Positions 19,828 through 38,867 of a stretch of 64,000 nucleotides of DNA are shown one piece after another; within the stretch, counting starts at the first letter, position 1; every line of letters starts with the position of its first letter. Below the pieces are notes generated by a model, which did not search any database, was not told the DNA's origin, and saw only the letters and a program-made list of their open reading frames with translations. Source of the DNA: Flavobacteriales bacterium (GTDB taxonomy: Bacteria; Bacteroidota; Bacteroidia; Flavobacteriales; CAJXXR01); contig JBMYYR010000001.1 in assembly GCA_049609625.1 (NCBI GenBank), positions 3,644 to 67,643 of the forward strand, given 5' to 3'. The position numbers were made by a program, and so were the translations under genes.

Positions 19828-19835
19828 TATTTTTG
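19828..19835 (+). promoter_or_regulatory. Candidate -7 box (TATTTTTG) for the SPFH gene
   Basis: TAnnTTTG match 27 nt upstream of the ATG at 19863. It lies inside the TTG-extended track ORF. Confidence 0.4.
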
Positions 19836-19862
19836 ACTATATTAGTCGAAAAAACAAAAAAC

Positions 19863-20981: not shown

Positions 20982-21011
20982 AACTAAACGACTTATAGGT
21001 TTTTAGATTTT

Positions 21012-22145: not shown

Positions 22146-22259
22146 AGAGGCTTGTTGAAAAAAAAACGGAGCTTGATCTCCGAGAACTGCCAGCATGCTA
22201 TTCAAAAACTAAAACAAAAGGTGTGAATTTGTCCTGATTTGAGCCGACACAAAAGTAGC

Positions 22260-24629
22260 TTAGTACTGTTTTTTAGCCACATAGGCTGTTGCCAATGTAG
22301 AGAACAGAACTACTGTAATGGAGCTAAGTGGCATCAAAATGGCTGCCACAATGGGCGATAGTTTACCACTAACGGCAAAACTCAAGCCTACCACATTGTA
22401 TAGAAATGAAATGGCAAAACTGAATTTAATAATCCGAATACTCAGTTTAGAAAAGTTGATAAAGTAGGGCAGATGTTCAAATTGATTGGCGCTTAGAATG
22501 GCGTCGCAAGCCGGAGAAAACTGGTGAATATTATCTGAAACAGCAACGCCTACTTTGCTCTGTTTTAGTGCGCCGGCATCGTTTAGTCCATCGCCAATCA
22601 TCATCACTTGTTCGTGCTCAGACTCTAGTTGTTTAATGTAGTTCAGTTTGTCCATCGGCGATTGGTCGAAATGTAATTGTTTGATGCCAAACTGTGTTTC
22701 TAGTACAGCTTTTTGACCTGCGTTGTCGCCAGAAATTAGATGAATAGAACATGATTCTTTTAGTTTGTCAACCAGTGTTTTGAGCCCTTTCCGATAACTT
22801 TGCTCGAGCTGGAAATAGCCTTTTGTTTGGCCATTTATGGCAACATAAACCCGAGAAGCACGCTTGTGTTTAGATGCTTTGTTTAGATCTAAAAACTCGG
22901 CAGAACCTAATTTTATTTTGAATCCATCTAGCTCACTTTCAATACCTTGTCCTGAAATTTCCTTAAAACTTTTTAGTGTTTGACTTCCTGAACATTCAAG
23001 ATGATTCTTGATCGCTACGCTTAAGGGGTGCAGGGAGTTGCTAACGACGGATTTGACCGCTTCTTGTTCGAGCGTATTCAAAGGGTCGCCATGAAAATTT
23101 ATATGCTTCATACCTCGGTGGGTAATAGTGCCTGTTTTGTCTAAAACGACGGTGGAAATAGCGGCCATCGACTCAATAACTTGAGTGTTTTTTAGGTATA
23201 AGCCTTTGCTGCCCATCAATCGGATGGTGTTTCCGAGTGTAAAAGGCACGCTCAGTGCAAGAGCACAAGGGCAAGCCACAATCAGTACGGCTGTTAGTGC
23301 ATTCCACATCAAATGCTTGTCGGTGTACCACCAAAACAATGCAGTACAAAGAGTGATAACCAGAATAACAATGGTAAAATATTTGCTTACTCGGTTGCTG
23401 ATGGAATGGAGATCGCTTTGTTCACTTTTTTTATCAAAAATATCCTGATTCCAAAGCTGAGTAAGGTAGCTGTTGTTGACTTTTTTTGTGAGTTCGACAC
23501 CAATTTTTGTGCCTACCTGTCGGCCTCCAGCAAAAATTTGATCGCCTATGTGTTTCCGCACAGGTGCCGACTCGCCCGTAACGAAACTATAGTCGATATA
23601 GGCTTCTCCGGATGTTAGAATGCTATCGGCAGGAATAAGTTCGTTGTTTCTAAGTTCGATGTTGTCGCCTACTTTTAGGTCGTCAATAGTTGTAGGCTGG
23701 TATGTGTTGCCTACTTTTTTGGAGACCGCAATGGGGAAATAGGATTTATAATCTCGCTCGAACGACAAGGTGTCGTAGGTTTTTTTCTGAAACCACTGCC
23801 CCAGAAGCAGAAAGAAAACGAGCCCTGAAAGTGAATCGAAATATCCAGCGCCAGTTGCCGAAATAATTTCATAGCTACTCCGAATCAATAAGGTAATCAT
23901 ACCCAAAGCGATAGGAATGTCCATGTTTATAAAGCGTTGCTGGATGCCTTTCCAAGCGTTTCTCAGATAGCCAAAACCAGCATAAAAAAAGACAGGTAAG
24001 GTCAAAATGAGTGAAATGTAGCCAAAAAAGGCTCGAAATTGCTCATAGGAAGCATCAATGCCCAGATATTCTGGAAAAGCCAAGAGCATAATATTACCAA
24101 AACAAAAGCCCGCTACACCGATTTTGTAATATAAACTGCGATTGATGTTTGCATTGGCGGAAGTTTCGAGCTTGTCGTGGAGGTTGGGCTGGTAGCCAAT
24201 GGCGGAGAGCAATTCGACAACTTCTCTTAGGTTAATGTCTTGATTATTAAAGCTAATGTCGACTCGGCGGCTAGAGAAATTCACAAATGCTGACGAAATT
24301 CCTTTGTGGAGTCGTGTTAAATTTTCGAGCAACCAAATACAGGCACTACAATGAATTTGAGGAATATGAAATGAAACCTTGGTTAGGTTATCGTTTTCAA
24401 ACCGAATCCATCGCTGTTTGAACTCATCGACATCCAAAAACGCAAATTGATCTTTGTGGTTTAGCTCGGTTTTGAGTCCCGGAAAATGTTCTAAATCATA
24501 GTAAGTATCCAAATCATTTGTCTCCAAAATCTCGAAAACTGTTCGGCAACCAAAACAACAAAAGTGCTGTGTTTTATAAATCACTTCGCTTGCACTCTCG
24601 CATGGGTCTCCACAGTGGTAACAGTTCAT
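22260..24629 (-). CDS. ccoI: Heavy-metal (copper) P-type ATPase, FixI/CcoI-type cbb3 oxidase maturation protein
   Basis: N-terminus MNCYHCGDPC...FCCFGCRTVFEIL, CPC ion motif (ACPCALAL), DKTGT phosphorylation site, GDGLNDAGAL. Confidence 0.88.
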   Translation of the reverse strand: MNCYHCGDPCESASEVIYKTQHFCCFGCRTVFEILETNDLDTYYDLEHFPGLKTELNHKDQFAFLDVDEFKQRWIRFENDNLTKVSFHIPQIHCSACIWLLENLTRLHKGISSAFVNFSSRRVDISFNNQDINLREVVELLSAIGYQPNLHDKLETSANANINRSLYYKIGVAGFCFGNIMLLAFPEYLGIDASYEQFRAFFGYISLILTLPVFFYAGFGYLRNAWKGIQQRFINMDIPIALGMITLLIRSSYEIISATGAGYFDSLSGLVFFLLLGQWFQKKTYDTLSFERDYKSYFPIAVSKKVGNTYQPTTIDDLKVGDNIELRNNELIPADSILTSGEAYIDYSFVTGESAPVRKHIGDQIFAGGRQVGTKIGVELTKKVNNSYLTQLWNQDIFDKKSEQSDLHSISNRVSKYFTIVILVITLCTALFWWYTDKHLMWNALTAVLIVACPCALALSVPFTLGNTIRLMGSKGLYLKNTQVIESMAAISTVVLDKTGTITHRGMKHINFHGDPLNTLEQEAVKSVVSNSLHPLSVAIKNHLECSGSQTLKSFKEISGQGIESELDGFKIKLGSAEFLDLNKASKHKRASRVYVAINGQTKGYFQLEQSYRKGLKTLVDKLKESCSIHLISGDNAGQKAVLETQFGIKQLHFDQSPMDKLNYIKQLESEHEQVMMIGDGLNDAGALKQSKVGVAVSDNIHQFSPACDAILSANQFEHLPYFINFSKLSIRIIKFSFAISFLYNVVGLSFAVSGKLSPIVAAILMPLSSITVVLFSTLATAYVAKKQY

Positions 24630-24848
24630 AGCTTTGGTTTTGAGATAATGAATGATAACAATAGGTTCAACATAAGGTATTGTAGGTTGATTGCTCTAGT
24701 CGAAACATGATTTTTATCACATTTCCGACAAAACAATAGTATTCTCTTGATATTCAAAATGCTTCATTTCAGTAAAAAAGCTGATATTTGTCAGTTTTTT
24801 AACGTCAATATTAAAATTATTTTGTAATCCAACAACACCAAGGTCTCT

Positions 24849-26402
24849 ATGTGTAAACACAGTCAAGCTCAAAACATCAAAGAAACGAGAATTAATCCTG
24901 AAGAATTTTACCAACAATTGTTTGATTCGGCAGGAGAGGGCATTCTTTTGGTCAACAACAAAGGTCAAATTGTGATGGCCAACAAAAGACTGGTTGATTT
25001 ATTTGGTTATCAACTCGAAGAGATTCTAAATCAGAATATTAATATTTTGATTCCCCAAAATTCTAGACCACATCATGATCGTTATATCTCTGGCTATTTT
25101 AGTGCGCCAAGAGCTCGGTCTATGGGTAAGGAAATGATTTTGGCTGGGCTTAGAAAAGATGGTACTGAATTTCCGATTGAAATCAGTCTGAATTATTTTA
25201 GATCGAACAAAGACATGTTTGCTATTGCTTTGATTACCGACATCACTGTCCGAAAAGAGGCCGAATCTGAAATTGTGGAGCTCAACGAAAAATTGGAACA
25301 GCGAGTCAAGGAACGTACAGAGCAGCTGGCAGAAAGCGAACGTTTGTATAGCGCTATTGCGCGTAATTTTCCCGATGGCATTATTAGTGTTCTGGACCGG
25401 AATTTGAATTATATTTTTGTTGAAGGCAAGGAGCTCACAAAGTTGGGCATCGATGCAAAATCTTTGATTAACACCAGCTATCTTGAACGGCTTCCGAAAG
25501 CCCTGTTGAGCCAAGTGAAACATCATTTTTCTCAGGTTTTTGAAGGAGAATCGAACTCATTTGAACTTTCTCTAAACCAAAGACATTATGTTTTGGATGC
25601 TGTGCCTCTAAAACACACGGGCACTAAAATAGATCAGATTTTGTTGGTCGAAAAAAACGTTACTTCAACCAAAGAGCTCGAGAATGAAATGAAGAAAAGT
25701 TTGGAAAGAGAGCGCGAACTTAGCAGTATGAAATCTCGCTTTGTGTCGATGGCTTCGCATGAGTTCAGAACGCCATTGGGCACTATTCTGTCTTCTGCAT
25801 CGCTGATAGCTCGCTACACCAAAGACGAGCAACAGGAACAAAGAGAAAAACATGTGTCTAAAATTAAATCATCGGTAACAAATCTAACCAGTATTCTGAA
25901 TGATTTTTTGTCTTTAGAAAGTCTGGAGGCAGGCAAACTGACTTGTGTTCTTGAAGCGTTTGAACTTGTAGATCTTTGCGAAACGGTAAAAGAGGATATT
26001 CAAGGTTTGCTAAAAACAGGACAAACCATAGAGTATAAGCATCTAGGCGATCAAAGTATAGTTTGTCTGGACAAGCAAATGATGGGAAATGCGCTATTGA
26101 ATTTATTATCGAATGCCATTAAATATTCTCACGAATATCAAGCTATTCAGTTTGTTAGTCAAATTGAAGATGGGCAATTGAATATTTCCGTAACCGACAA
26201 CGGTATCGGTATACCAATAAGTGAGCAGAAGCATTTGTTTGTTCGGTTTTTTAGAGCCAACAATGCAACCAACATCAAAGGAACCGGCTTGGGACTCAAC
26301 ATCACAAAAAAATATATTGAACTGATGGGAGGGAAAATTCAGCTGACTAGCGAAGAAGGAAAAGGCACAAAGGCGGAACTTTTGTTTGATTTAAAACACT
26401 AA
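24849..26402 (+). CDS. Soluble tandem-PAS sensor histidine kinase (FixL-like first PAS)
   Basis: No TM segment. PAS1 spans about residues 17-135 and carries the HHDRYISGY motif. A coiled coil and PAS2 follow, then HisKA SHEFRTPL and HATPase_c (NLLSNAIKYS, DNGIGIP, GTGLGL). Confidence 0.88.
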   Translation: MCKHSQAQNIKETRINPEEFYQQLFDSAGEGILLVNNKGQIVMANKRLVDLFGYQLEEILNQNINILIPQNSRPHHDRYISGYFSAPRARSMGKEMILAGLRKDGTEFPIEISLNYFRSNKDMFAIALITDITVRKEAESEIVELNEKLEQRVKERTEQLAESERLYSAIARNFPDGIISVLDRNLNYIFVEGKELTKLGIDAKSLINTSYLERLPKALLSQVKHHFSQVFEGESNSFELSLNQRHYVLDAVPLKHTGTKIDQILLVEKNVTSTKELENEMKKSLERERELSSMKSRFVSMASHEFRTPLGTILSSASLIARYTKDEQQEQREKHVSKIKSSVTNLTSILNDFLSLESLEAGKLTCVLEAFELVDLCETVKEDIQGLLKTGQTIEYKHLGDQSIVCLDKQMMGNALLNLLSNAIKYSHEYQAIQFVSQIEDGQLNISVTDNGIGIPISEQKHLFVRFFRANNATNIKGTGLGLNITKKYIELMGGKIQLTSEEGKGTKAELLFDLKH

Positions 26403-26406
26403 AATT

Positions 26407-27468
26407 ATGGCAAAATCAATTTTGTTGATAGAAGACAATAAAGGCATGAGAGAAAATATTGCCGAAATTTTGGAATTGGCAAATTATGAAGTTTCGACTG
26501 CCGAAAATGGAAAAATTGGGGTAAAACAAGCAAAGCTTTTGCTTCCCGATCTTATTATTTGCGATATTATGATGCCTGAAATGGATGGTTATGAAACCTT
26601 GTATATGCTTGGGAAAGACAAGCGAACGAGCCAAATTCCGTTTATTTTTTTGACGGCAAAATCGGAAAAAACCGATTGGCGAAAAGGTATGAACATGGGC
26701 GCGGACGATTATCTGACCAAGCCTTTTGATGAAATGGAACTTCTGAATGCCGTTGAGGTTAGGCTTCAGAAAAGTGAACGCTTGAGCCAGGAATTAAATG
26801 ATAAGTTGGAGCATTCTAATCACTTCATATACAAATCATTGGGTATGGAAAAATTAAGAGCTCTAGCCGAAAATAAAAAATCAAAAGTCTACAAGAAAAA
26901 GGAAATTATTTTCCATGAAGGCGATTACGTTGGTTCTGTGTTCTATGTGTTGCAAGGAAAAATTAAGACCTACAAAAGTAATCTAGATTCAAAAGATTAT
27001 ACACTTGACCTGTACCGAAAGGGCGATTTTATTGGTTACAAAGCGCTCATCAAAGAGATGGAACATTTCAATTCGGCTGTGGCACTCGAAGATTCTACGC
27101 TTGTAAGAATCAAAAAAGAAGAATTTTTGAACCTGCTCTACGAAAACCCTGATGTGTCTAAAGTGTTCAATAAGTTACTGTCGGGAAAATTGATGGAAAA
27201 AGAACAGGAATTAATTAATTTGGCTTTCAATTCGGTTCGCAAACGTGCTGCCGACGCTCTGTTGTTGTTAGAAAAAAAGTATAAAGAAGAGGACGAATCT
27301 CCATTTTGTATGTCGATTTCTAGGGACGATTTGGCAAGCCTTGTTGGCACATCTACCGAGTCGGTTATTCGCGCACTTTCCGATTTTAAAGACGAAGCAT
27401 TGATAGAAGTAAAAGGAAGTAAAATTACTTTGCTGGACAGCGATGGCTTAAAATCTTTGCGACAGTAG
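26407..27468 (+). CDS. Response regulator: REC domain fused to a Crp/Fnr-type cNMP-binding domain and HTH
   Basis: REC (LIICDIMMPEMDG, LTKPF), a Crp beta-barrel-like segment (IIFHEGDYVGSVFYVLQGKIK) and a C-terminal HTH (RDDLASLVGTSTESVIRALS). Starts 4 nt after the kinase stop. Confidence 0.85.
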   Translation: MAKSILLIEDNKGMRENIAEILELANYEVSTAENGKIGVKQAKLLLPDLIICDIMMPEMDGYETLYMLGKDKRTSQIPFIFLTAKSEKTDWRKGMNMGADDYLTKPFDEMELLNAVEVRLQKSERLSQELNDKLEHSNHFIYKSLGMEKLRALAENKKSKVYKKKEIIFHEGDYVGSVFYVLQGKIKTYKSNLDSKDYTLDLYRKGDFIGYKALIKEMEHFNSAVALEDSTLVRIKKEEFLNLLYENPDVSKVFNKLLSGKLMEKEQELINLAFNSVRKRAADALLLLEKKYKEEDESPFCMSISRDDLASLVGTSTESVIRALSDFKDEALIEVKGSKITLLDSDGLKSLRQ

Positions 27469-27617
27469 AGGTTGTTGGGTCATTTGCATGCTTTTTTTGT
27501 TAATTTGAGTTAATAGGAAATCTTAGTCTGCTTTCCAGATTGTTGCAGAAGAACATAAATTGCAAGATATTAACCATTATTAATTGAAGTGTAAAAATAA
27601 ATTTTTTTGAGTTTTGT

Positions 27618-27625
27618 TAAGTTTG
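27618..27625 (+). promoter_or_regulatory. Candidate -7 box (TAAGTTTG) for the moxR/bat operon
   Basis: TAnnTTTG match 30 nt upstream of the ATG at 27656. Confidence 0.4.
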
Positions 27626-27655
27626 TCCTCGCTTTAAAACAAAAATCAAAAAACT

Positions 27656-28654
27656 ATGGAAACAACCGTCGATATTAAAGCCATTAATGAAAAAATTAAG
27701 GAAGAAAGTGCGTTTATTGATCTTTTAAGTTTAGAAATCAACAAAGTGATTGTTGGTCAAAAACACATGGTCGAGCGACTTTTAATCGGGCTTTTGGGTT
27801 CTGGACATATCCTTTTAGAAGGAGTGCCTGGGCTTGCAAAAACTTTGGCTATCAACACACTTTCTAAGGCTATAAAGTCTGATTTTCAACGGATTCAATT
27901 CACGCCAGATCTGTTGCCTTCGGACGTCATCGGAACCTTGATTTACAATATCCAAAAAGGAGAATTTGACATCAAAAAAGGCCCTATTTTTTCCAATTTT
28001 GTGTTGGCAGATGAAATCAACCGAGCACCAGCAAAAGTACAATCGGCCCTACTAGAAGCCATGGCAGAAAAGCAGGTTACGATAGGCGATGTAACCTATA
28101 AATTGGACGAGCCATTTTTGGTTTTGGCAACGCAAAACCCTGTGGAACAAGAAGGTACGTATCCCTTGCCCGAAGCTCAGATGGATAGATTTATGCTCAA
28201 AACAGTGATTACATACCCAACACTCGAAGACGAGCGTGCCATTGTGCGCAACACCATAAACGGCTCTATTTATCAAGACGTCAATCCGGTTGTGAGTATC
28301 GAAGAAATTTTGAGAGCTCGCGAAGTGGTAAAAGAGGTTTATATGGACGAAAAAATCGAAAACTATATTCTTGATATCATATTTGCCAGTCGTTTTCCAG
28401 AAAAATACAAACTAGAGCATCTCAAACCACTTATCAGTTTTGGAGCTTCGCCTCGTGGGTCTATCAACTTGTCGATGGCAGCCAAAGTCTATGCTTTTAT
28501 CCGCCATCGTGGTTATGTTATTCCAGAAGATGTTCGGGCAGTTTGTCATGATGTATTGCGCCACCGAATAGGTGTAACATACGAAGCCGAAGCTGAAAAC
28601 TTGACAAGTGAAGATATTATTAATCAGATACTTAATGCTGTAGAAGTTCCGTAA
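27656..28654 (+). CDS. moxR: MoxR-family AAA+ ATPase
   Basis: LLEGVPGLAKT Walker A, LADEINRAPAKVQSALLEAM Walker B/sensor region. Confidence 0.93.
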   Translation: METTVDIKAINEKIKEESAFIDLLSLEINKVIVGQKHMVERLLIGLLGSGHILLEGVPGLAKTLAINTLSKAIKSDFQRIQFTPDLLPSDVIGTLIYNIQKGEFDIKKGPIFSNFVLADEINRAPAKVQSALLEAMAEKQVTIGDVTYKLDEPFLVLATQNPVEQEGTYPLPEAQMDRFMLKTVITYPTLEDERAIVRNTINGSIYQDVNPVVSIEEILRAREVVKEVYMDEKIENYILDIIFASRFPEKYKLEHLKPLISFGASPRGSINLSMAAKVYAFIRHRGYVIPEDVRAVCHDVLRHRIGVTYEAEAENLTSEDIINQILNAVEVP

Positions 28655-28661
28655 ACAGAGC

Positions 28662-29528
28662 ATGACAACTAGCGAAATCATAAAACAAGTTCGGCGGGTA
28701 GAAATCAAAACCAAACGCTTATCCAACCATATTTTTTCGGGAGAATATCACAGTTCTTTCAAAGGAAAAGGGATGTCTTTTTCTGAAGTCAGAAGATATG
28801 AAATGGGCGACGATGTACGCGATATCGATTGGAATGTAACCGCCAAATTGCACGAACCTTATGTCAAGGTTTTTGAGGAAGAGCGCGAGCTTACCATGAT
28901 GCTTTTGGTGGATGTGTCTGCCTCATCTACATTTGGCACCTTGAAAAGCGAAAAACGTCAATTGATGACCGAACTTTGTGCTGTTCTTGCCTTTTCGGCG
29001 ATTCAGAATAACGACAAAGTGGGTCTAATTCTATTTAGTTCGGAAGTCGAAAAGTTTATTCCACCCAAAAAAGGAAAAAGTCATATTCTGAGAATCATCA
29101 GAGAATTGATTGAATTTGAACCAAAATCTAAAGACACCAACATTAGTGTTGCATTGAAATTTATGATGCAAGTTATTAAAAAACAATGTATTACCTTTTT
29201 GGTTTCAGATTTTATAGATGAGGATTATCAGACCGAAATCCAGATGGCATCCAGAAAATATGATTTTACAGGCGTTCGGATATTTGATCGACATGAAGAG
29301 CAGATGCCCGATGTTGGTTTGATAGAATGTGTTGATGTCGAGACCAATGAATCTATATTAATTGACAGTAGTTCCAAAAAAGTTCGGACAGCCTACGATG
29401 CTAAATTCCATGTACACAAAGGCTATTGTGCCGATGTGTTCAGAAAAAGTGGCTCGGATTTAATTGAACTCCAAACTGACGAAAATTACATCAAAAAATT
29501 ATTGGCATTTTTTAAAAAACGTAGCTAA
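28662..29528 (+). CDS. DUF58 protein (VWA-like MoxR partner)
   Basis: GEYHSSFKGKGMSFSEVRRYEMGDDVRDIDWNVTAK is the DUF58 signature. Confidence 0.88.
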   Translation: MTTSEIIKQVRRVEIKTKRLSNHIFSGEYHSSFKGKGMSFSEVRRYEMGDDVRDIDWNVTAKLHEPYVKVFEEERELTMMLLVDVSASSTFGTLKSEKRQLMTELCAVLAFSAIQNNDKVGLILFSSEVEKFIPPKKGKSHILRIIRELIEFEPKSKDTNISVALKFMMQVIKKQCITFLVSDFIDEDYQTEIQMASRKYDFTGVRIFDRHEEQMPDVGLIECVDVETNESILIDSSSKKVRTAYDAKFHVHKGYCADVFRKSGSDLIELQTDENYIKKLLAFFKKRS

Positions 29529-29533
29529 ATTCG

Positions 29534-30454
29534 ATGAAAACGTATTTAATTTCTTTGTTCAGTCTTTTGACTGTTGCTTTGCAAGCGCAAGTTAGCTTAA
29601 ACTATGGCTTTTCGACTGATACCATGTTAGTTGGAGACCAATTGTTGATGAAGCTCGAGCTCAAAGGCAAGGCTTCCGAAGCTGTTATTTGGCCTTTAAT
29701 TACCGATACTTTGGGCGACTTTGAAGTCGTTGAGCAAAGCTCAATTGACACCATTCCTTCGGATACTTTAAATTTAGAAAAATACCTTTTTCTGACTCAA
29801 TTTGACACGGGCGTATTTGTTGTTCCGAGTTTGGCTTTTAGCGTCAATCAGGATAGTATTTTTACTCAAAGTCATCAACTTGTGGTGCTTCCCGTTCACA
29901 TCGATTCGACCAACGCTGGATTCTACGCACAGGTCGATCCGCTAGAAGTGCCTTATGTTTTTGGTGAATTTAAAGATTTGATAATCAATATTTTGATAGG
30001 TATTTTAATCTTAGGCTTACTTGCCTTTTTCATTATCCGCTACCTCAAAAAACAGCAAAAGAAAGAAAAAGTAGAACTCAAAATCCCCGCTCATATTTTA
30101 GCTTTGGGCGAATTATCGGAGCTGAAATCTAAACACTACATTGACTCTGACGAGATCAAAACGTATTACTCAGAACTTTCTGATATTATTCGTCGATACA
30201 TAGAACGACGCTACCATTTTTTGGCTCTCGAATCGACGACTAGCGAAATCGCACAATCCTTAAAAACACAAAAATTAACCGAAACACAAAAAACTAAATT
30301 GATGACTTTCCTTGAAGAAGCCGATCTGGTAAAGTTTGCAAAAGCCTTCCCCGAAGCTCATCAGCATGAGGTTTATTATTCTGAATTAGAAGAATTTATA
30401 CATCAAACCAAAGTCCAATTTGAAGAAATAGCAGTCGATGAACATCACGAATAA
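29534..30454 (+). CDS. Membrane protein with a BatD-like periplasmic N-domain, one TM helix and a DUF4381-like C-domain
   Basis: Signal peptide, central TM helix LIINILIGILILGLLAFFII, and its position between DUF58 and batA. Confidence 0.6.
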   Translation: MKTYLISLFSLLTVALQAQVSLNYGFSTDTMLVGDQLLMKLELKGKASEAVIWPLITDTLGDFEVVEQSSIDTIPSDTLNLEKYLFLTQFDTGVFVVPSLAFSVNQDSIFTQSHQLVVLPVHIDSTNAGFYAQVDPLEVPYVFGEFKDLIINILIGILILGLLAFFIIRYLKKQQKKEKVELKIPAHILALGELSELKSKHYIDSDEIKTYYSELSDIIRRYIERRYHFLALESTTSEIAQSLKTQKLTETQKTKLMTFLEEADLVKFAKAFPEAHQHEVYYSELEEFIHQTKVQFEEIAVDEHHE

Positions 30455-31427
30455 CCTCTTTTTTGAACATCCAGAATTTCTCTGGTTTTTGATTTTATTG
30501 CCTTTGCTTTTCCTCTATTTTTGGTTTGTGAAGCGCAAAAATAGACCTAAAATTAGTCATTCGACGAGCAAGCTTGCACAAGTCAGCACGTGGAAAAATA
30601 CCTTTGCTTTTCTACCTAAAGCCTTAGCTTATCTAGCTCTTTTTCTGATGATTATCGCTTTAGCTCGCCCAAGATCCGAAAGCGAAGATGTAGAAACCTT
30701 AAATCAGGAAGGCATTGACATTGTCTTAGCTTTAGATGTATCGACGTCTATGGGTGCTTACGACTTCAAACCCAATCGATTAGAAGCTTCAAAAGCCATT
30801 GCGATTGACTTTGTAAACGGCATCAAAAACGATCGGATTGGTTTGGTAATTTACGCTGGAGAAAGCTTCACAAAATGCCCAATAACATCTGATTATAAGT
30901 TGGTTAAAAATCAATTAAACAGCATCAAATTCGGACTTTTGGAAGACGGCACCGCCATCGGAATGGGTTTGGCGACCTCGGTATCGAGACTAAAAGACAG
31001 TAAAGCCAAAAGTAAAGTCATTATTTTACTGACTGACGGCGTGAATAATACAGGGTTAATTTCTCCACAAACTGCCGCCGATTTAGCTGCCGAATTTGGC
31101 ATCAAAGTCTACACAATTTGTGTGGGAAAAAATGGAAATGTCAAAGCGCCGGGTCCAATGGGGCGCACCAGAGTGATTGAGCATATTGTTGACGTCGACA
31201 TGATGAAAGATATTGCGCAAATCACTGGTGGTAAGTCTTTTATAGCCGACAATAATCAAGCGCTCGAAGCTATTTATGAAGAAATAAATGCCCTCGAAAA
31301 AACTGAAATTAAAGAATTGAAGTATAAAAATTACAGCGAACATTTTCGTCCAATTTTACTTTTAGGCTTACTTCTTTTAGCAATCGAACGTTGTTTAACC
31401 TACACCGTATTTAAGACCATAAATTAA
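30438..31427 (+). CDS. batA: VWA-domain membrane protein BatA
   Basis: N-terminal TM pair, VWA MIDAS motif (LALDVSTSM), C-terminal TM helix. Confidence 0.85.
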   Translation: MNITNNLFFEHPEFLWFLILLPLLFLYFWFVKRKNRPKISHSTSKLAQVSTWKNTFAFLPKALAYLALFLMIIALARPRSESEDVETLNQEGIDIVLALDVSTSMGAYDFKPNRLEASKAIAIDFVNGIKNDRIGLVIYAGESFTKCPITSDYKLVKNQLNSIKFGLLEDGTAIGMGLATSVSRLKDSKAKSKVIILLTDGVNNTGLISPQTAADLAAEFGIKVYTICVGKNGNVKAPGPMGRTRVIEHIVDVDMMKDIAQITGGKSFIADNNQALEAIYEEINALEKTEIKELKYKNYSEHFRPILLLGLLLLAIERCLTYTVFKTIN

Positions 31428-32452
31428 TGTTTGTAATCGATAACATACAATACGTTTGGCTCTTTCTTGCCTTCATCCCTTTACTGGGAATTTACCTTTA
31501 TTTTGCTCGTTGGCGAAAGCAAAAACAGGCACTTTTTGCTGAATCTGAGCTTTGGAAAAAACTAAATCCGAGACATTCTAAACGTAAAATTCACATCAAG
31601 TTTATACTTTATATTTTGATGTTTAGTTTCGGAATTTTGGCTTTGATGAATCCTAAAATTGGCTCGAAACTAAAAACACTAAAACGCCAAGGTGTAGATG
31701 TGGTTTTTGTGATGGACGTCTCCAAAAGTATGCTCGCCGAAGACATTGCGCCAAGCCGATTGGAGCAATCTAAACATCTTGTTTCCAGATTGTTAGATCG
31801 TTTGGTTTCGGATAGAATCGGAATGGTGGTGTATGCCGGAAAAGCCTATCCGCAATTGCCTTTAACGAGCGATTATTCGGCGGCGAGATTGTATTTAAAC
31901 GACATCAATACCGACATTGTGCCTTCCCACGGAACGGATGTTGAGTCGGCCATTCGGATGGCACTCGATTATTTTAAAACCACCAAAGAGCAAAAAAATC
32001 AATGTATTGTTCTGCTTTCGGATGGCGAAGATCACGAAAATACATCTTTAGACTGGCTTTCGGTTGTTGACGACAGCGGCATCCCGATTCACACCATTTC
32101 TTTAGGAAAAACATCGGGCGCACCCATCCCAATCAAAACCAATAATCGGATTACATCCTATAAAAAAGACCGCCAAGGCGAAGTGGTTATTACCAAAATG
32201 AATCCAGTGTATTTGAGCGAAATTGCCGAAAAAACAGATGGCGAGTTTTTGAATGGAAACGACAGTAGAACAACTGTAGATCAGGTTGTTGAAAGCATCG
32301 AGAACATGGAAAAAGGCGAATCGGAAACTGAGCTTTTTGACGATTATGAAGATCAATTTCAGTGGTTTATTGCTGCTGCTATGTTCTTTTTAGTTTTGAT
32401 TTTGATGTTGGGCGATGGAAAAACAATGTGGTTAAGAAAATTAAATATCTGA
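31427..32452 (+). CDS. batB: VWA-domain membrane protein BatB
   Basis: VFVMDVSKSM MIDAS motif. The ATG overlaps the batA stop by 1 nt. Confidence 0.85.
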   Translation: MFVIDNIQYVWLFLAFIPLLGIYLYFARWRKQKQALFAESELWKKLNPRHSKRKIHIKFILYILMFSFGILALMNPKIGSKLKTLKRQGVDVVFVMDVSKSMLAEDIAPSRLEQSKHLVSRLLDRLVSDRIGMVVYAGKAYPQLPLTSDYSAARLYLNDINTDIVPSHGTDVESAIRMALDYFKTTKEQKNQCIVLLSDGEDHENTSLDWLSVVDDSGIPIHTISLGKTSGAPIPIKTNNRITSYKKDRQGEVVITKMNPVYLSEIAEKTDGEFLNGNDSRTTVDQVVESIENMEKGESETELFDDYEDQFQWFIAAAMFFLVLILMLGDGKTMWLRKLNI

Positions 32453-33354
32453 TGAGACAACTTCATTTTTATTTAGGATTAGTTTTTAGTCTTCTGAGCT
32501 TTAGTTCTTTAGCTCAGATGGAAGAGCGTAGCATGACCAGAAAAGCCAACGCATCTTATCAAGATTCGTTGTTTACAAAAGCGACCTTAGAATACAAACA
32601 AGCTTTAGAAATTCACGATTTTGATACCAACCGATTCAATATGGCGGTCAGTTTGTTTGCAGAAGAAAACACCGAAGAAGCCATTAAAGAATGGGAACTT
32701 GTTGAAAAAAAATCAGACAATAAAACCTTAAAATCATTTTGTGTTTACAACAAAGGGTTGGCACAATTGAAATCAGAAAAACAGGAAGAAGCTCTCGAAA
32801 GTTTTAAACAAGCCTTGCGCTATCAGCCTAAAAATGAGATGGCTAGACATAATTATTGGTTTCTAAAACTGTTGCTTGACAGCCAGCCCCAACAAGAGCA
32901 ACAAAATCAGGATAACAAGGATAATCAAGACAATAAAGATCAGGACAAAAAAGATCAAGAGCAAAATCAGGATCAAAATAAAGACGGAGATTCTGAAAAC
33001 GGCGACGGCGATAAAAAGAAAGACGAAAAGACCGAAGACAAGCAAAAAGGCGACAAAGACAGCGAAAAAGAAGAAAAGCAAGAAGAAAAAGAAGACGCTG
33101 AAGACAATAAAGAAGACGAAGACGGCGAAAAACAAGATAAAAAGGACGAAAAGGCAGATAAAAACAAAGCCGGAGAAGAAGAAAAAGAGGATCAGAAAGA
33201 AGGAGAAAATGCCAATGCCGCACTCTCGAAAGCTGAAGCTTTACAGCTTTTAGAAGCCATCGATGAAAGTGAAGACAACACACACAAACGGATTAAGGCT
33301 CAGATGCTGAAAGAGCAAAAAAGAAAAGCTGTTAACAAAGAAAAAGATTGGTAA
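32452..33354 (+). CDS. batC: TPR protein BatC with a long D/E/K/Q low-complexity region
   Basis: Signal peptide MRQLHFYLGLVFSLLSFSSLAQ and TPR repeats. Start trimmed to the ATG at 32452 (TGATG overlap with batB). Confidence 0.8.
   Translation: MRQLHFYLGLVFSLLSFSSLAQMEERSMTRKANASYQDSLFTKATLEYKQALEIHDFDTNRFNMAVSLFAEENTEEAIKEWELVEKKSDNKTLKSFCVYNKGLAQLKSEKQEEALESFKQALRYQPKNEMARHNYWFLKLLLDSQPQQEQQNQDNKDNQDNKDQDKKDQEQNQDQNKDGDSENGDGDKKKDEKTEDKQKGDKDSEKEEKQEEKEDAEDNKEDEDGEKQDKKDEKADKNKAGEEEKEDQKEGENANAALSKAEALQLLEAIDESEDNTHKRIKAQMLKEQKRKAVNKEKDW
32878..33210 (+). repeat. Polypurine low-complexity coding tract inside batC
   Basis: About 330 bp almost entirely A/G on the plus strand, encoding QQEQQNQDNKDNQDNKDQDKKDQEQ...EEEKEDQKEGEN. 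It spawns four spurious ORFs in other frames. Confidence 0.85.
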
Positions 33355-35096
33355 TGAGCACATTAAAAACGTATATTTCATATTTGACCTGTCTTCTTTT
33401 CATCGGATTTTCTTTAAAATCCGAAGCTCAAGAAGTCCGTGTTACGGTCGACAAAACGGAAGTGGTTTTGGGGGAAACGCTATCGGTTTCTTATCGGATT
33501 GAAGGCAAAGCCGATCAATATGATCCGCCTGTTTTTGAAGGTTTTCAAACACTTGGACGTCCTGGTATTACACAGGGTTCATCAAATTTTAATGGAAACG
33601 TTAGCCGCTACATTATTCTTAATTTTAGCCTAAAAGCTCAAAAAATTGGTGTATTTCAACTTCCTGATATCGTGCTTGATGGCACGATGATGCCTGTAAA
33701 CAAAGTTGTTTTAAAAGTTGTTAAGGAAAAGAAACAAAGCTCGAGGTCGATTAATGAACATGTATTCATCAAAACCGAATTGTCGAAAGCCAAAATGTAT
33801 GCCGGCGAAACGTTTTTGTTGACCTACAAGCTGTATTTAGATTCGGAACATTCGCAGGTTACGGGCGTAGAACAACAGCCTGATTTTAAGAATTTTTGGT
33901 CGAAAGAAATTGAAGTCAAAAATCAGAATTTCAGCCAAGAGCTTATCAACGGCAAAGCGTATTTTGTCCGTACGTTGTTTCAGGTTTTGCTTCGAGCTTA
34001 CGATTCAGGAAAAATTCGGATAAAACCTATTGTGTTGACAGTCAGGTATCCAAAAGTAAATTCTGGCCGTCGAAATATTTTTGGACAATCTATTTTTAGT
34101 TATACAAATGAGCGTATTGAGAGTAAAGACCTAACGCTTTCGATACTTGATTTACCTACAGCTGGTCGCCCAAAAAACTTCTCTGGTGCAGTTGGTCGCT
34201 TCAAAATTGACCAGAATTTTTCGACTAAAAAAGCCGAAGTAGGAGAGACCATTTCGTTCAATCAACGGATTTCTGGAACAGGGAATTTCGATTTATTTAC
34301 TTTGCCGAAAGTCAAATTTCCTCAAGATATTGACGTGTATGACCCCAAATCGAACCATTCATTTACATCAACCGCAAGGGGAACGCGTGGGCAAAAAGAA
34401 CATCAATATATTTTAATTCCTCGACAACCAGGGACTTTCAAGGTGGGTTTAGATGGCTTTTCGTACTTTGATACAAAATCGAAATCGTATAAAACAATCG
34501 GAAGACAACAGGTTGATATTCAGGTTTCTGGAGAAGCTTCTTCGGGGCTGAATCAGACAGGAAATGCTGTGCATTCTTCAGAAGTTCAAGTACTTGCGCA
34601 GGATATTGAGTACATCAAACTGGAAACTGAACTAGAGCCCAAAACTGAGCCTTGGTTTAGTTTGGGTAAAAGCTGGATTTGGCTTTTCCTTTTAGCCTTG
34701 GCTGCCTTTGGGCGATGGCTTGGTGTTTGGTGGACGAACAAAACGGTAGATCAAGTTAGTGTAAGGCAACGCAAAGCCAAACAGGCGGCAAAAAAGCGAT
34801 TGAAAGCGGCAGAAAAAGCATTAAAATCTGATCAAGATGCGGTGTATTTTCAAGTGTTGATGGAGTCTATTTTTGGTTATTTTAAAGACCGATTTACCTT
34901 AGAAGCTTTGGAACTCAATCAAGAGCATATTGTTAGTTTATTGGAGAGTCAAAAAATTGATAATCAGCAAATTGAAGAATTTAAAGCCTTGATTTCGATT
35001 TGCCAAATGGCAAGCTACGGCGGCGCAAGCACTCCCAAAAAAGACCTTCAAAACCGCGCCGAAAACCTAATAGAAACATTAGAAAGTAAGTTATGA
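33354..35096 (+). CDS. batD: BatD (oxygen-tolerance family) protein
   Basis: Signal peptide, repeated beta-sandwich segments, a late TM helix WIWLFLLALAAFG. ATG at 33354 (TAATG overlap with batC); the track start is a TTG. Confidence 0.82.
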   Translation: MSTLKTYISYLTCLLFIGFSLKSEAQEVRVTVDKTEVVLGETLSVSYRIEGKADQYDPPVFEGFQTLGRPGITQGSSNFNGNVSRYIILNFSLKAQKIGVFQLPDIVLDGTMMPVNKVVLKVVKEKKQSSRSINEHVFIKTELSKAKMYAGETFLLTYKLYLDSEHSQVTGVEQQPDFKNFWSKEIEVKNQNFSQELINGKAYFVRTLFQVLLRAYDSGKIRIKPIVLTVRYPKVNSGRRNIFGQSIFSYTNERIESKDLTLSILDLPTAGRPKNFSGAVGRFKIDQNFSTKKAEVGETISFNQRISGTGNFDLFTLPKVKFPQDIDVYDPKSNHSFTSTARGTRGQKEHQYILIPRQPGTFKVGLDGFSYFDTKSKSYKTIGRQQVDIQVSGEASSGLNQTGNAVHSSEVQVLAQDIEYIKLETELEPKTEPWFSLGKSWIWLFLLALAAFGRWLGVWWTNKTVDQVSVRQRKAKQAAKKRLKAAEKALKSDQDAVYFQVLMESIFGYFKDRFTLEALELNQEHIVSLLESQKIDNQQIEEFKALISICQMASYGGASTPKKDLQNRAENLIETLESKL

Positions 35097-35848
35097 ACCA
35101 TTCAAAACCATTCCTTTTTTTAGTTACCTTTTTGACCTCAATGTTTTCTGTGGCTCAAACACCAGAAGCTCAATTCGAAATGGGCAATGGAGCTTACAAA
35201 GTCAAAGATTTTGAAACGGCTCTTGAAGCTTATAAAAACGTAGAACAAGCTGGGTTTGAATCGCCCGAATTGTATTTCAATATGGGAAATACGGCGCATC
35301 AGCTCCAGCAGCTCGGCTATTCGATATTGTATTATGAAAAAGCTTTGGAGCTTGATCCAAATTTTGAAGAAGCACAAAAAAACTTAGCTTTTGTCGAGCA
35401 ATTCAAAGCGGATAAAATTGAACAGGTTCCTTTATCGATATTCAAAACATTCTTCACTGAAATTTCAAGTCAATTTACTGTTGATCAATGGTTTAATATT
35501 TCTATTTGGGCTCTATTACTATTTTGCATTGGCGTTTTTGCCTTGAGTTTTCAATGGATTAAAGCCAAAAGAAAGCCTGTTTTTTTTCTCAATCTTATGG
35601 CACTTGCATTTGCCCTTTTTGCTATCGGATTTACCATCTATTCTCATCAAAACCAAAAACAATTGCTTGTGTTTGTTGGCGATACCGTATATGTAAAAAG
35701 TGAACCAAATACCGAATCGGTTGATTTGTTTTTATTGCATGAAGGCGTAAAAGCCGAAGTGAAAGCTAAAGATGGTAACTGGTTGAATATTAGGCTTGAA
35801 GATGGACTTTCGGGCTGGGTGAAAGTTTCTGATTTTGAGGAAATTTAG
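35093..35848 (+). CDS. batE: BatE: TPR + TM + C-terminal SH3-like domain
   Basis: ATGA overlap with batD, TPR repeats, two TM helices, and the terminal segment GNWLNIRLEDGLSGWVKVSDFEEI. Confidence 0.8.
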   Translation: MNHSKPFLFLVTFLTSMFSVAQTPEAQFEMGNGAYKVKDFETALEAYKNVEQAGFESPELYFNMGNTAHQLQQLGYSILYYEKALELDPNFEEAQKNLAFVEQFKADKIEQVPLSIFKTFFTEISSQFTVDQWFNISIWALLLFCIGVFALSFQWIKAKRKPVFFLNLMALAFALFAIGFTIYSHQNQKQLLVFVGDTVYVKSEPNTESVDLFLLHEGVKAEVKAKDGNWLNIRLEDGLSGWVKVSDFEEI

Positions 35849-35912: not shown

Positions 35913-38867
35913 TTAATCCAAAAAAAGCTTATAAAACTCATCATGAAGTTTAGTTCTAACATTATTAGTTACCAAACGTTTATTTTCCATGGTTGGGTAA
36001 GTTCTGTTAGATAAGAAAATGAAAATCATTTGATTTTCAGGATCAGCCCAGGCGAATGTGCCAGTAAAACCAGAGTGTCCAAAGCTTTTGGCAGAAGCTA
36101 ATTCTCCTGCAGGACCACCTTCTTCATCCATCAAAGGTTTATCAAAACCTAAACCACGTCGGTTATTTTGGTTACAAAAAGCGCAAGCTGTAAACTGCTC
36201 TATAGTTTGCTGATCAAAATACTGTTTACCGCCATATTGTCCTTTTTGAAGATAAACTTGCATGAGCTTAGCGAGATCAATACCTCTACCAAACAAACCG
36301 GCATGCCCTGCCACACCACCTAACATGGCGGCACCCATATCGTGTACTTCTCCTTTGAGGCTTTGATGTCGGAAATAAGTGTCGATTTCTGATGGCACTA
36401 TAGCCGATGACGTTTTCGGTAAATAGCCTAAAGTATATGCACCAATAGGTTGGAATAAGGTGTTTTCAACTAATTGATTTAGAGATAGTTTTGATTTTTT
36501 TTCAACAAGTTCTTTTAATAAATAAAATCCTAAATCACTATAGCGATAGTAGGTAGAATCCAACAATTCGGACTCATAAATCCAGGTCAAAATAGAATCT
36601 TTATACAGGTTATTGACAAACATATTGTCGGCAACTTGAGTTTCAAAATGGCTTGATTTGGTTTTACTATATAGACCTTTTTTCCAAGATTTATCTTCCT
36701 CTAAAGTCTTTAAATAGAATGGAATCCAAGGTTTAAATTTAGCCTGATGCGCCAAAATTGAACGTATGCTAATGTCGGCTTTGTTGGTATTTTTACTTTC
36801 TTCTAAGTAGGTTTCAAGGGTTTGGTCTAAATCTAATTTGCCCTCATCATATAACATCATCAATGCCGATGTTGTAGACGCCATTTTGGTTATCGAAGCC
36901 AAATCATAAACACTAGTGTTGGTAATGGCTTTTTTATTCTCGTAGGTCTGAAAACCATAATTTTTATTAAACAAAATCTCGCCATCTTTTGCCATAATAA
37001 GCTGACAGCCAGGTGTAGATTCATCATTAATAGTAGCATTTGCAATAGAGTCAATTTGCTGAAAATCAGATGCTCTGAGTCCAAATTTCATTGGATTTCC
37101 TAGTCTGATTTGTTTGCTTTCTTGAAAATGAAGCCCCGTAGATTCTGGAAAAGCTTTAGAGATACTTACAGGTAGTTTGCCTTTTGGCGAACGCGCACCA
37201 AACAGAAATTGGGCAGCCAGTTTATTTGCTTCCATATTGTTCTGATAAGCAACAGAAAAACTGGTGAATTGTTCTAAAAACTTGAGCTCGAGTAGGGCAT
37301 AGGGATTTGCGAAATGAATCAAATGCGTGTTGGCTCGCTTAGACAGTTTTTCGAGTGAAAGCCGTTCAAAATCACTTAATTTATAGGCTTTCCAAGGCGA
37401 TTTATCCGATTTGTGAATACTGACAATCAGTTGAGTAGAGTCCGGAATAGAACTCAACCAATGATCAAATTCAGCGGTTTTGCCCTTGCTAGAAAAGTGT
37501 TTTTTGTCGGAAGGTACAAAGAAATCAAAGCCATCCTCATACACTTTTTTCTGTTCAATATCACCAAAACTAACTAGCTTAAATAGTTGTTTTTCAATAG
37601 ATTGAAAAGGAATGACTTGATTAGGATTATGAACCAAAGTAAAGGCTTCGGCCATAAGTTGTTCTTTAATCCATTGCGCTTTTTCGTGGTCTATTTTTCC
37701 TTTTGGAAGACTATCTTTTTGGTGTAAATTGAGGTAACTTTTAAGCATCAAGACCTTGAAACAGCTTTTGTTAAGTTCGTCCAAGGTATATTCTTTGGTT
37801 TCGATGCCTTTTTTTACCGTATCAATGACCGCTTTTAGGTTTTGAGGTAAAAGCAAAACGTCATTTCCGGCTTTTAGAGCTTCGAGTTCTAATCGCCCAT
37901 TTTCGTAATGATCCTGAACGCCTTTCATTGCCAATCCATCGGTCATCACAATGCCCTGAAAACCCATTTCGGTTTTGAGTAGAGAGTCAATAAAAACCTT
38001 TGATAATGAGCTTGGTAGATTCTGTTTTCCAGTAATTTTCGGAATATCTAAATGGGCAATCATCACAGCAGAAACACCGCCATCAATACATTTCCGAAAA
38101 GGAAAAAGCTCCAAACTATCTAAGCGTTTCATGCCAAAAGGCAATTGCGGAAGCGCCAAATGCGAATCCATATCGGTGTCGCCATGACCCGGAAAATGTT
38201 TTATGCAAGCTGCCACCTGATTTTTTTCTAAACCTTTGATGTAATTTTGTGCTTTTCGGGCAACATTAATTTTGTTTTCGCCAAAAGAACGGCTGTTTAT
38301 AATCGGATTTTGAGGATTATTATTGACATCAACATCGGGAGCCAAATTAATATGAATGTTGAGCGCTTTAAATTCTTCAGCCATTTGCGCGGCCATTTCT
38401 TCAATCAATTCATGATTTTGAACCGCACCTAAAGTCATCATCCATGGATATTTTGGAAGTTCGCTCAAACGCATATTTGCGCCCCATTCTCCATCTATCG
38501 AAAATAAAAGGGGGAGTTTTGAAGCCGATTCATATTGTGAAGAAAGGGCTTTTAGAGAAATGGTATCACCTTTAAAAAAAGTAACACCACCAATACCATA
38601 ATTTTTTATTTGGCTTAGAAGTTCAGATTCCATACTGCTCGAACGAACCGATTCGGAACGCATAAAACAAAGTTGAGCAATACGTTCTTCTATACTCAGA
38701 TTCTCAAGGGTTTCTAAAGCCCAAGTGGAGTCTGATTTTAGAAAATCTGGAGACGTTGACTCTTCTATAATGCGTTCATTGTTAGTAAGTTGGTTTTGTT
38801 CTTTTGCTTTAGGAACTCCAAAGATAAAGCAGATAAAAAACAATGAGGAAGTCAGCCAATTAAGCAT
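35913..38867 (-). CDS. Fusion protein: GH3 beta-N-acetylhexosaminidase (NagZ-like) + class C beta-lactamase/PBP-like serine hydrolase
   Basis: 984 aa with a signal peptide. The GH3 motif KHFPGHGDT is in the N-half and the SxxK motif (ASITKM) is in the C-half. Confidence 0.88.
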   Translation of the reverse strand: MLNWLTSSLFFICFIFGVPKAKEQNQLTNNERIIEESTSPDFLKSDSTWALETLENLSIEERIAQLCFMRSESVRSSSMESELLSQIKNYGIGGVTFFKGDTISLKALSSQYESASKLPLLFSIDGEWGANMRLSELPKYPWMMTLGAVQNHELIEEMAAQMAEEFKALNIHINLAPDVDVNNNPQNPIINSRSFGENKINVARKAQNYIKGLEKNQVAACIKHFPGHGDTDMDSHLALPQLPFGMKRLDSLELFPFRKCIDGGVSAVMIAHLDIPKITGKQNLPSSLSKVFIDSLLKTEMGFQGIVMTDGLAMKGVQDHYENGRLELEALKAGNDVLLLPQNLKAVIDTVKKGIETKEYTLDELNKSCFKVLMLKSYLNLHQKDSLPKGKIDHEKAQWIKEQLMAEAFTLVHNPNQVIPFQSIEKQLFKLVSFGDIEQKKVYEDGFDFFVPSDKKHFSSKGKTAEFDHWLSSIPDSTQLIVSIHKSDKSPWKAYKLSDFERLSLEKLSKRANTHLIHFANPYALLELKFLEQFTSFSVAYQNNMEANKLAAQFLFGARSPKGKLPVSISKAFPESTGLHFQESKQIRLGNPMKFGLRASDFQQIDSIANATINDESTPGCQLIMAKDGEILFNKNYGFQTYENKKAITNTSVYDLASITKMASTTSALMMLYDEGKLDLDQTLETYLEESKNTNKADISIRSILAHQAKFKPWIPFYLKTLEEDKSWKKGLYSKTKSSHFETQVADNMFVNNLYKDSILTWIYESELLDSTYYRYSDLGFYLLKELVEKKSKLSLNQLVENTLFQPIGAYTLGYLPKTSSAIVPSEIDTYFRHQSLKGEVHDMGAAMLGGVAGHAGLFGRGIDLAKLMQVYLQKGQYGGKQYFDQQTIEQFTACAFCNQNNRRGLGFDKPLMDEEGGPAGELASAKSFGHSGFTGTFAWADPENQMIFIFLSNRTYPTMENKRLVTNNVRTKLHDEFYKLFLD

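Follow-up and report, generated by a model that had tools for sequence, protein, structure and literature searches.

In a 64,000-nucleotide stretch of DNA from a Flavobacteriales bacterium (contig JBMYYR010000001.1; hereafter the window, at its full length), we analysed an operon at positions 24849-27468 that encodes a sensor kinase and a response regulator whose receiver domain (REC) is fused to a Crp-type transcription factor. We consider it likely that this operon is a two-component system working like a shortened FixL-FixJ-FixK cascade. It most likely turns on cbb3 oxidase genes, here ccoI only, at low oxygen. The evidence presented below is computational throughout and comprises sequence, synteny, motif and structure prediction analyses.

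The kinase gene (24849..26402, plus strand; 517 amino acids, aa) is divergent from a gene for a ccoI/fixI-type P1B Cu-ATPase (22260..24629, minus strand; 789 aa), with a 219-bp spacer between them (24630-24848). The regulator gene (26407..27468, plus strand; 353 aa) follows the kinase gene after a gap of 4 nt (26403-26406), and a further 187 bp (27469..27655) separate it from an operon of eight open reading frames (ORFs), moxR-DUF58-(306-aa membrane protein)-batA-batB-batC-batD-batE (27656..35848, plus strand). This gene map agrees exactly, in ORF positions and in all three spacers, with a preliminary description of the locus made from the sequence alone. That description regarded the whole region as one oxygen-themed neighbourhood, in which a REC-Crp protein might control cbb3 oxidase maturation, the Bat genes, or both.

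A soluble kinase with a FixL-like PAS domain

Searches against Pfam and NCBIfam assigned PAS, HisKA and HATPase_c domains to the kinase; the PAS domain spans aa 16-145 and is followed by a second PAS-like region, and the H-box lies at His304. No hydrophobic or transmembrane (TM) segment was found in the protein (maximum KD19 1.04), which is therefore considered soluble; the domain matches and the missing TM segment bear out the soluble PAS kinase of the preliminary description.

Among proteins of known structure, the best matches to the kinase PAS domain (aa 22-145) were RmFixL (1d06, E = 1.5e-16) and BjFixL (1dp6/1drm, E = 3e-15), with EcDOS/DosP as the next-best relatives. The NCBIfam FixL model also matched, at aa 16-149, with a score under its cut-off. 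In gap-free alignments, His76 of the kinase (codon 25074..25076, plus strand) pairs with His200 of BjFixL, the proximal haem ligand. We then aligned 70 PAS domains of regulator-paired kinases with both FixL domains. The proximal histidine was invariant (70/70), the FG-loop glycine was kept in 69 of the 70, and the position of BjFixL His214, a propionate contact that is Arg in RmFixL, was Arg or Lys in 68. Judging from these residues, the kinase most probably binds haem as FixL does. The position of BjFixL I216 is occupied by Met in 57 of the 70 domains.

The partner of the kinase is not a FixJ-type protein (REC with a LuxR/GerE helix-turn-helix, HTH); it consists of REC, cNMP_binding and HTH_Crp_2 domains. 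The kinase would thus work like FixL without being a canonical member of that family, since it departs from FixL both in its partner and at one position of the haem pocket, which is considered below.

A receiver domain fused to an FNR-like body

The regulator matches Response_reg (PF00072, E 1.8e-29), cNMP_binding (PF00027, E 3.9e-20) and HTH_Crp_2 (PF13545, E 1.4e-15). Across an alignment of 18 regulator sequences, E9, D10, D53 and K105 were invariant and T83 was Thr or Ser; the acidic pocket, the phospho-acceptor Asp (Asp53, codon 26563-26565) and the conserved Lys of a receiver are all present. The C-terminal 220 residues match structures of the Crp/FNR family (2gau, T. thermophilus CAP, CRP and A. 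fischeri FNR). An AlphaFold2 model (pLDDT 74.6) comprises the REC domain, a flexible linker of low confidence (aa 126-146), a beta-barrel, a long C-helix and a winged HTH, and its secondary structure agrees with the cNMP-type beta-barrel, dimerisation helix and C-terminal HTH_Crp found by the domain searches. No solved REC-Crp fusion was found in a fold search of the PDB, all matches spanning only the Crp part of ~200 residues.

The residues with which CRP contacts cAMP are absent: Tyr takes the place of E72 and Asn that of R82, and the family consensus likewise lacks the Arg. A cyclic nucleotide is therefore unlikely to be the signal. The N-terminal Cys cluster typical of FNR is absent as well, the N-terminus being the receiver domain. 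The recognition helix, TESVIR, retains the Glu and Arg of FNR's ETISR and has lost CRP's Arg180; by the recognition rules of FNR and CRP, such a helix predicts an FNR-like half-site. The family to which this regulator belongs is large, with more than 8000 clusters scored, nearly all of them 351-354 aa long and 50-68% identical, and carrying generic annotation only.

Conservation of the operon and its neighbours across Bacteroidota

Using an alignment of 18 regulator family members, we collected 80 species-level regulator loci with up to 10 kb of flanking sequence per side, drawn from Flavobacteriales, Cytophagales, Chitinophagales, Sphingobacteriales and Saprospirales. These loci were not sampled at random: they are the top 80 of at least 598 matches. 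Many are contigs of metagenome-assembled genomes whose taxonomic labels are uncertain, and their ORFs were called by a simple longest-ORF rule, which leaves start codons and distances approximate.

A kinase gene was located directly upstream of the regulator gene in 72 of 81 loci. The gap between the two has a median of -5 bp, and 64 of these 72 adjacent kinases carry a FixL-like PAS domain. These results support the kinase and the REC-Crp regulator as a conserved Bacteroidota operon. To view the surrounding genes without bias, all ORFs of the loci were called and then clustered. The recurrent neighbours were CcoI (31 loci), fused CcoNO and CcoP (25 each) and CcoG, FixH and a TauE-like protein (23 each), followed by a tandem universal-stress protein (Usp; 31 loci), HemN (10) and Hsp20 (9), and by two small unknown proteins, u130 (25 loci) and u125 (17). 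At least one cco gene (ccoI, ccoNO, ccoP, ccoG, fixH or tauE) is found within 10 kb of the regulator in 41 of the 80 loci, and in 21 of the 43 with full flanks; including usp, hemN and hsp20, the number of loci with such a neighbour rises to 58 of 80. By our estimate, adjacency within 20 kb in a genome of 3-6 Mb would arise by chance in <1% of cases. Since the order, side and orientation of the cco genes relative to the kinase and regulator genes differ among lineages and orders, their proximity has been kept through rearrangements.

The proposal that the FixJ and FixK steps are merged here in one REC-Crp protein serving cbb3 genes is therefore supported by the cco synteny, by the FixL-like PAS domain and by the predicted operator box described in the next section. 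Of the two neighbours to which the preliminary description tied the kinase/regulator pair, ccoI is conserved beside it and moxR-bat is not (0/80 in both directions of the search). Judged by adjacency in related genomes, which the description itself named as a test, its Bat half is refuted and its ccoI half holds.

In the two closest relatives, whose regulators are 68% and 66% identical to that of the window and whose kinase and ATPase have the same lengths as the window's, the operon ccoI-(ccoS)-ccoNO-ccoQ-ccoP-ccoG is divergent from the kinase-regulator pair, and the genes downstream of the regulator are unrelated ones. In one of the two, locus L081, ccoI and ccoNO are separated by a methyltransferase gene. 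The window therefore represents a derived state, in which ccoI has lost contact with the other genes of its operon and the regulator has acquired moxR-bat as its downstream neighbour.

Several variations of the locus were recorded. In Cytophagales of the Pontibacter/Adhaeribacter type, six loci (L001, L009, L012, L036, L044 and L056; e.g. L012:6804-11059) have four genes in the order FixL-like PAS kinase, stand-alone receiver of ~150 aa, second kinase without the FixL PAS domain, and REC-Crp regulator. The FixL-like PAS domain is thus carried by the first kinase, and the arrangement suggests a branched or multi-step phosphorelay into the same regulator. Two loci contain a stand-alone Crp-type regulator of ~210 aa beside the REC-Crp gene (L026:5500-6135 and L028:4013-4639), and in L073 a second gene of the regulator cluster adjoins a second ccoI. 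Both u130 (~130 aa, coiled-coil-like; e.g. L051:11060-11479, minus strand) and u125 (~125 aa; e.g. L035:11060-11425, minus strand) are encoded directly downstream of the regulator and have no Pfam match; neither is present in the window, and they are likely to be unknown members of the hypoxia regulon. Rarer neighbours include a cytochrome c, DoxX, a ScdA/hemerythrin (RIC) protein, a fatty-acid desaturase and OsmC.

A predicted FNR-like operator box upstream of the linked genes

We enumerated all inverted dyads of 4- and 5-mers with spacers of 0-8 nt (~11,500 patterns), and compared the regions upstream of the recurrent neighbour genes with all other upstream regions of the same loci. The top-ranking dyad was TGAT-N4-ATCA, present in 46 of 217 target regions and in 26 of 438 others (Fisher p = 1.4e-8). 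Its degenerate form TGAY-N4-RTCA was found in 102 of 185 target regions and 63 of 439 others (odds ratio 7.3), but this form was refined post hoc, after the data had been viewed, so that its p-value is optimistic, which has to be held against it. The full palindrome reads [A/C]TGAY-N4-RTCA[T/G], with an AT-rich spacer; many sites use TGAC, and the base 5' of the half-site is A or C and rarely T.

The box is placed before the genes that lead operons. It precedes ccoNO in 75% of cases, ccoI in 71%, hsp20 in 67%, the kinase gene in 51%, hemN in 50% and usp in 49%, as well as u125 in 91% (10/11) and u130 in 8 of 18, and was found in 0% of the cases upstream of the operon-internal ccoP, fixH and tauE. 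Box density was 3.7/kb in the target regions, as compared with 1.06/kb in other intergenic regions and 0.25/kb over whole loci. Upstream of the kinase gene, the position of the box centre peaks at 50-70 nt from the ATG.

A position weight matrix (PWM) trained with the window excluded was used to scan the 64 kb. The highest-ranking site, ACATGATTTTTATCACAT at 24705-24722 (16.8 bits; Box 1), and the fourth, AGCTGATATTTGTCAGTT at 24779-24796 (13.2 bits; Box 2), which is the second-best intergenic site, are the only intergenic matches among the top 25 hits, and both lie in the ccoI/kinase spacer. The palindrome of Box 1 (aTGATttttATCAc, 24707..24720) is located 84 bp upstream of the ccoI ATG, and that of Box 2 (cTGATatttGTCAg, 24781..24794) 61 bp upstream of the kinase ATG, where it would serve autoregulation. 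Boxes also occur at corresponding places in relatives with the same divergent layout; on the kinase side, the distance to the ATG is ~50-75 bp. The exact core of Box 1 occurs five times in the window and is intergenic only at Box 1. TGAY-N4-RTCA has 8 matches in the window, the 2 intergenic ones being those of this spacer. Box 2 is centred ~33 bp before an element that matches the Bacteroidota -7 consensus in 7 of 8 positions (TTATTTTG, 24817-24824), a spacing that is suggestive only but would fit class-II-type activation.

Stand-alone Crp/Fnr genes were absent from the window and were found near only 2 of the 80 regulator loci. Because so few other Crp/Fnr genes are nearby, the REC-Crp protein is the most economical candidate for the protein that binds the boxes. 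The usp gene of the window (41587-42468, minus strand) has no box upstream; it encodes a tandem universal-stress protein, is 14 kb away, and its product is 24% identical to the regulator-linked Usp of other loci.

The orphan ccoI gene

CcoI is the Cu-ATPase that loads copper into the cbb3 oxidase. The ATPase of the window contains the motifs of a P1B-ATPase (CPC453, DKTGT497, TGE351 and GDGLND679) together with three N-terminal CxxC motifs, and its domains include the N-terminal metal-binding domain PF12156 in addition to HMA, E1-E2_ATPase and Hydrolase. It is 43-56% identical to the ATPases that head ccoNO-ccoP-ccoG operons in relatives, and the place of these relatives' genes next to cco genes supports orthology.

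In the window itself, ccoI is neither within nor next to ccoNOQP or ccoGHIS. A tblastn search with CcoNO, CcoP, CcoG, FixH, TauE and HemN of relatives matched nothing else in the window, and no ORF of the size of ccoS was found downstream of ccoI, where a terminator-like hairpin with a T-run directly follows the stop codon (22167..22182, minus strand). The gene is thus monocistronic here, and its earlier designation as an orphan is borne out. A further 10 kb beyond the low-coordinate end of the window contain housekeeping genes and no cco genes, and other contigs that share a protein from the high-coordinate end are likewise devoid of cco genes. Located 3 kb beyond ccoI is miaE (18597-19226, minus strand), which encodes an O2-dependent tRNA hydroxylase.

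A model for the switch and its relation to known systems

We propose the following model. It builds on the observed gene content and synteny, on the conserved haem-ligand and phospho-acceptor residues, and on the enrichment and placement of the motif; haem binding is deduced from the sequence, and the signal with its direction, the transfer of phosphate and the recognition of the box by this regulator follow by analogy with FixL/FixJ and FNR. The cytoplasmic kinase would bind haem in its FixL-type PAS domain, with His76 as the proximal ligand. At low oxygen the deoxy (or otherwise ligand-switched) kinase would autophosphorylate on His304 and pass the phosphate to Asp53 of the regulator, an FNR/FixK-like protein that has a receiver in place of the N-terminal sensory region. 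Phosphorylation would then promote dimerisation of the Crp-like body and its binding to [A/C]TGAY-N4-RTCA[T/G], with Box 1 placed to activate ccoI and Box 2 to autoregulate the kinase/regulator operon. In other genomes the same pair would activate ccoI-ccoNO-ccoQ-ccoP-ccoG-fixH, usp, hsp20, hemN and the two small unknown genes, which together would form a hypoxia regulon.

The closest known counterpart is the FixL-FixJ-FixK cascade of rhizobia and Caulobacter, including its hFixL-FxkR-FixK variant (PMC7888657). It likewise has a haem-PAS kinase with the same proximal His and a Crp/FNR-type output that recognises a palindrome of the TGAT-N4-ATCA type, as predicted here, and its targets overlap with those proposed above (fixNOQP/ccoNOQP, fixGHIS/ccoGHIS including fixI/ccoI, and hemN). 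The system described here differs in consisting of two proteins rather than three, with the receiver fused directly to the Crp/FNR body and with neither FixJ (LuxR-type HTH), FxkR (OmpR-type) nor a separate fixK. Furthermore, its distal Arg is not conserved (Met in the window), its half-site is flanked by A/C and not T, and it belongs to Bacteroidota and not to Proteobacteria. FNR, ANR and FnrN share with the regulator the beta-barrel, C-helix and HTH_Crp, the E..R recognition residues, a similar operator and the logic of the regulon (cbb3, hemN). However, the regulator has a phospho-receiver in place of the N-terminal Cys4 [4Fe-4S] centre, and the proposed sensing of oxygen is carried out by a separate haem kinase. 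The DosS/DosT-DosR system of Mycobacterium (DevSR) resembles the present one in pairing a haem kinase with a single response regulator and in a regulon that is rich in universal stress proteins and includes an Hsp20/alpha-crystallin. Its kinases, however, bind haem in a GAF and not a PAS domain, and DosR has a LuxR-type HTH, a different operator and a regulon that is not centred on cbb3.

We found no description of this kinase/regulator pair in full-text literature searches, and the switch is apparently Bacteroidota-wide and uncharacterised. Oxygen sensing and the control of the cbb3 oxidase are essentially undescribed in aerobic and micro-aerophilic Bacteroidota. On balance we lean towards the wider proposal that members of the phylum share a two-protein pathway for O2 or another haem ligand, running from a FixL-like kinase through a REC-Crp fusion to a hypoxia regulon marked by a distinct operator, and in which an Arg/Met dimorphism in the kinase may tune ligand specificity. 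If this is true, aerobic Bacteroidota, for which neither an FNR nor a FixLJ-FixK pathway has been described, use this phylum-wide route instead. The proposal provides a testable model with a sensor, a regulator, an operator sequence and a core regulon, for a family with thousands of members. It also presents a new build of the FNR-like switch, with a phospho-receiver instead of the oxygen-labile Fe-S module, and is therefore relevant to the evolution of signalling and to the engineering of oxygen-responsive promoters for Bacteroidota.

Alternative readings of the locus

A number of observations weigh against the model. The position of BjFixL R220 is Met96 in the kinase of the window (codon 25134-25136, plus strand), which thus has no distal Arg, and in the family this position is split between Met (31), Arg (22) and Leu (9 of 70). 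In about half of the regulator loci, the surrounding 10 kb lack cco genes. Downstream of Box 1, no clear Bacteroidota -7 element (TAnnTTTG) could be seen by eye on the ccoI strand. As no other cco genes were found in the window or in the sequence searched beyond it, extending the model to the structural genes of the oxidase in this organism would be an extrapolation.

The distal position bears on the nature of the signal. Arg220 of BjFixL hydrogen-bonds the bound O2, and the ligand chemistry of the kinase may accordingly differ from that of FixL; the Arg/Met dimorphism of the distal pocket could mean a different chemistry, such as His/Met six-coordination. It is conceivable, then, that the same architecture responds to NO, CO or the redox state, for instance by means of a six-coordinate His/Met haem like that of EcDOS, and controls a nitrosative or redox regulon. 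Such a signal would fit with Met96, with the frequent Met at the I216 position, with EcDOS/DosP as next-best structural relatives of the PAS domain, and with the presence of ScdA/hemerythrin (RIC), OsmC and DoxX among the recurrent neighbours. We nevertheless regard it as rather unlikely, as the core of the linked genes encodes the cbb3 oxidase with its assembly proteins, Usp, Hsp20 and the oxygen-independent HemN, and the distal Arg is retained in a third of the kinase family. Together, such genes make up the low-oxygen set that is classical for the FixK, FNR and DosR regulons. A different concern is that the boxes could in truth be bound by an FNR-type protein whose gene is unlinked to these loci, with the REC-Crp protein a mere neighbour that has other targets; FNR-type boxes are indeed common before cbb3 oxidase genes in Proteobacteria (e.g. 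PMC8510549). This we consider improbable, for the box is as frequent at the kinase/regulator operon itself (51%), and at a fixed distance typical of autoregulation, and it precedes u125, a small gene found only beside the regulator. The scarcity of stand-alone Crp genes at these loci also argues against it, as does the A/C flank in place of the T of classical FNR/FixK sites, which would fit the Ser-to-Ile change in the recognition helix.

The remaining alternative is that the REC-Crp protein also controls moxR-bat, directly or by read-through, and thereby ties oxygen sensing to aerotolerance. The two units are on the same strand and only 187 bp apart, and no terminator was found in 27469-27655, either by a pattern scan or as an RNA fold better than that of shuffled sequences (z = -0.07), so that read-through is physically possible. 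The bat operon of Riemerella anatipestifer, moreover, responds to oxygen and H2O2 (PMC9603813). These points are outweighed by the comparative evidence. When all proteins of the window were searched by tblastn against the 80 regulator loci, no match to MoxR, DUF58 or Bat was obtained (0/80), while CcoI recurred in about a third of them. Conversely, a search of 80 metagenomic loci chosen for a MoxR with 74-81% identity to that of the window turned up neither the regulator nor CcoI within 5 kb of moxR (0/80). The best PWM score in the spacer upstream of moxR is 1.5 bits, compared with the 16.8 bits of the ccoI site; among relatives the box is upstream of moxR in 2 of 75, or 0.09/kb, which is less than the 0.25/kb of whole loci. 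In addition, a match to the Bacteroidota -7 consensus, TAAGTTTG, 31-38 bp upstream of the moxR ATG, suggests that moxR has its own promoter. The published regulator of a flavobacterial bat operon is PhoP, which is not of the Crp type: the Riemerella operon is under PhoPR control (PMC9603813, PMC11834572), and the earlier statement that no regulatory link is known for Bat operons is thus outdated. Complete deletion of bat in Leptospira gave no oxidative-stress phenotype (PMC3557215), and the oxygen theme of the Bat half is itself weak and rests mainly on a historical name. Control of moxR-bat by the REC-Crp protein is therefore very improbable, and this tempting functional link, together with the view of the whole region as a single oxygen-themed unit, is removed as unsupported.

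The moxR-bat operon as an independent unit

The domain matches of the operon are AAA_3 and AAA_lid_2 for MoxR, DUF58 for the second gene, a BatA N-terminal domain and VWA for BatA and BatB, TPR for BatC, BatD for the next gene, and TPR with SH3 for BatE. They agree with the eight-gene moxR-bat operon of the preliminary description, except for its DUF4381 label of the third gene, since the 306-aa protein (29534-30454, plus strand) has no Pfam match at E<0.05. This protein has two TM-like segments and a marginal BatD-like match as its sole Pfam signal (E 0.09), and its gene occupies this position in about 60 of the 80 moxR loci collected above, which have the order moxR-DUF58-306aa-batA-batB in common. 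The Bat/MoxR-VWA operon of Riemerella has the same set of moxR, DUF58 and batA-E, and is PhoPR-controlled, whereas here no evidence links it with the REC-Crp regulator next to it. We conclude that moxR-bat is an independent unit, which probably came to lie beside the regulator by a rearrangement specific to this lineage.

A conserved gene pair, at 19791-22145 (plus strand) in the window, encodes an SPFH/Band-7 protein with a GYF_2 domain and a zinc-ribbon-like membrane protein of 377 aa. In six moxR loci (L129, L137, L143, L150, L153 and L158) this pair precedes moxR by no more than 5 kb and is encoded on the other strand. Overall, SPFH(-zinc-ribbon) genes occur upstream of moxR in 6 of the 53 loci that extend far enough in this direction, and no sensor module separates them from moxR. 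In the window the pair flanks ccoI and is on the same strand as moxR, and the ccoI-kinase-regulator genes lie between the two. This placement is consistent with an inversion or insertion in the lineage of the window having made the present juxtaposition.

The listed BatC ORF (32362-33354, plus strand) has a GTG start and overlaps batB by 91 nt; its TPR match begins only at aa 129, and the true start is probably a downstream codon. Convergent with batE is a gene (35913-38867, minus strand) for a 984-aa fusion of a GH3 N-terminal domain (NagZ-like) with a C-terminal domain of the serine beta-lactamase/penicillin-binding type, which may serve cell-wall recycling.

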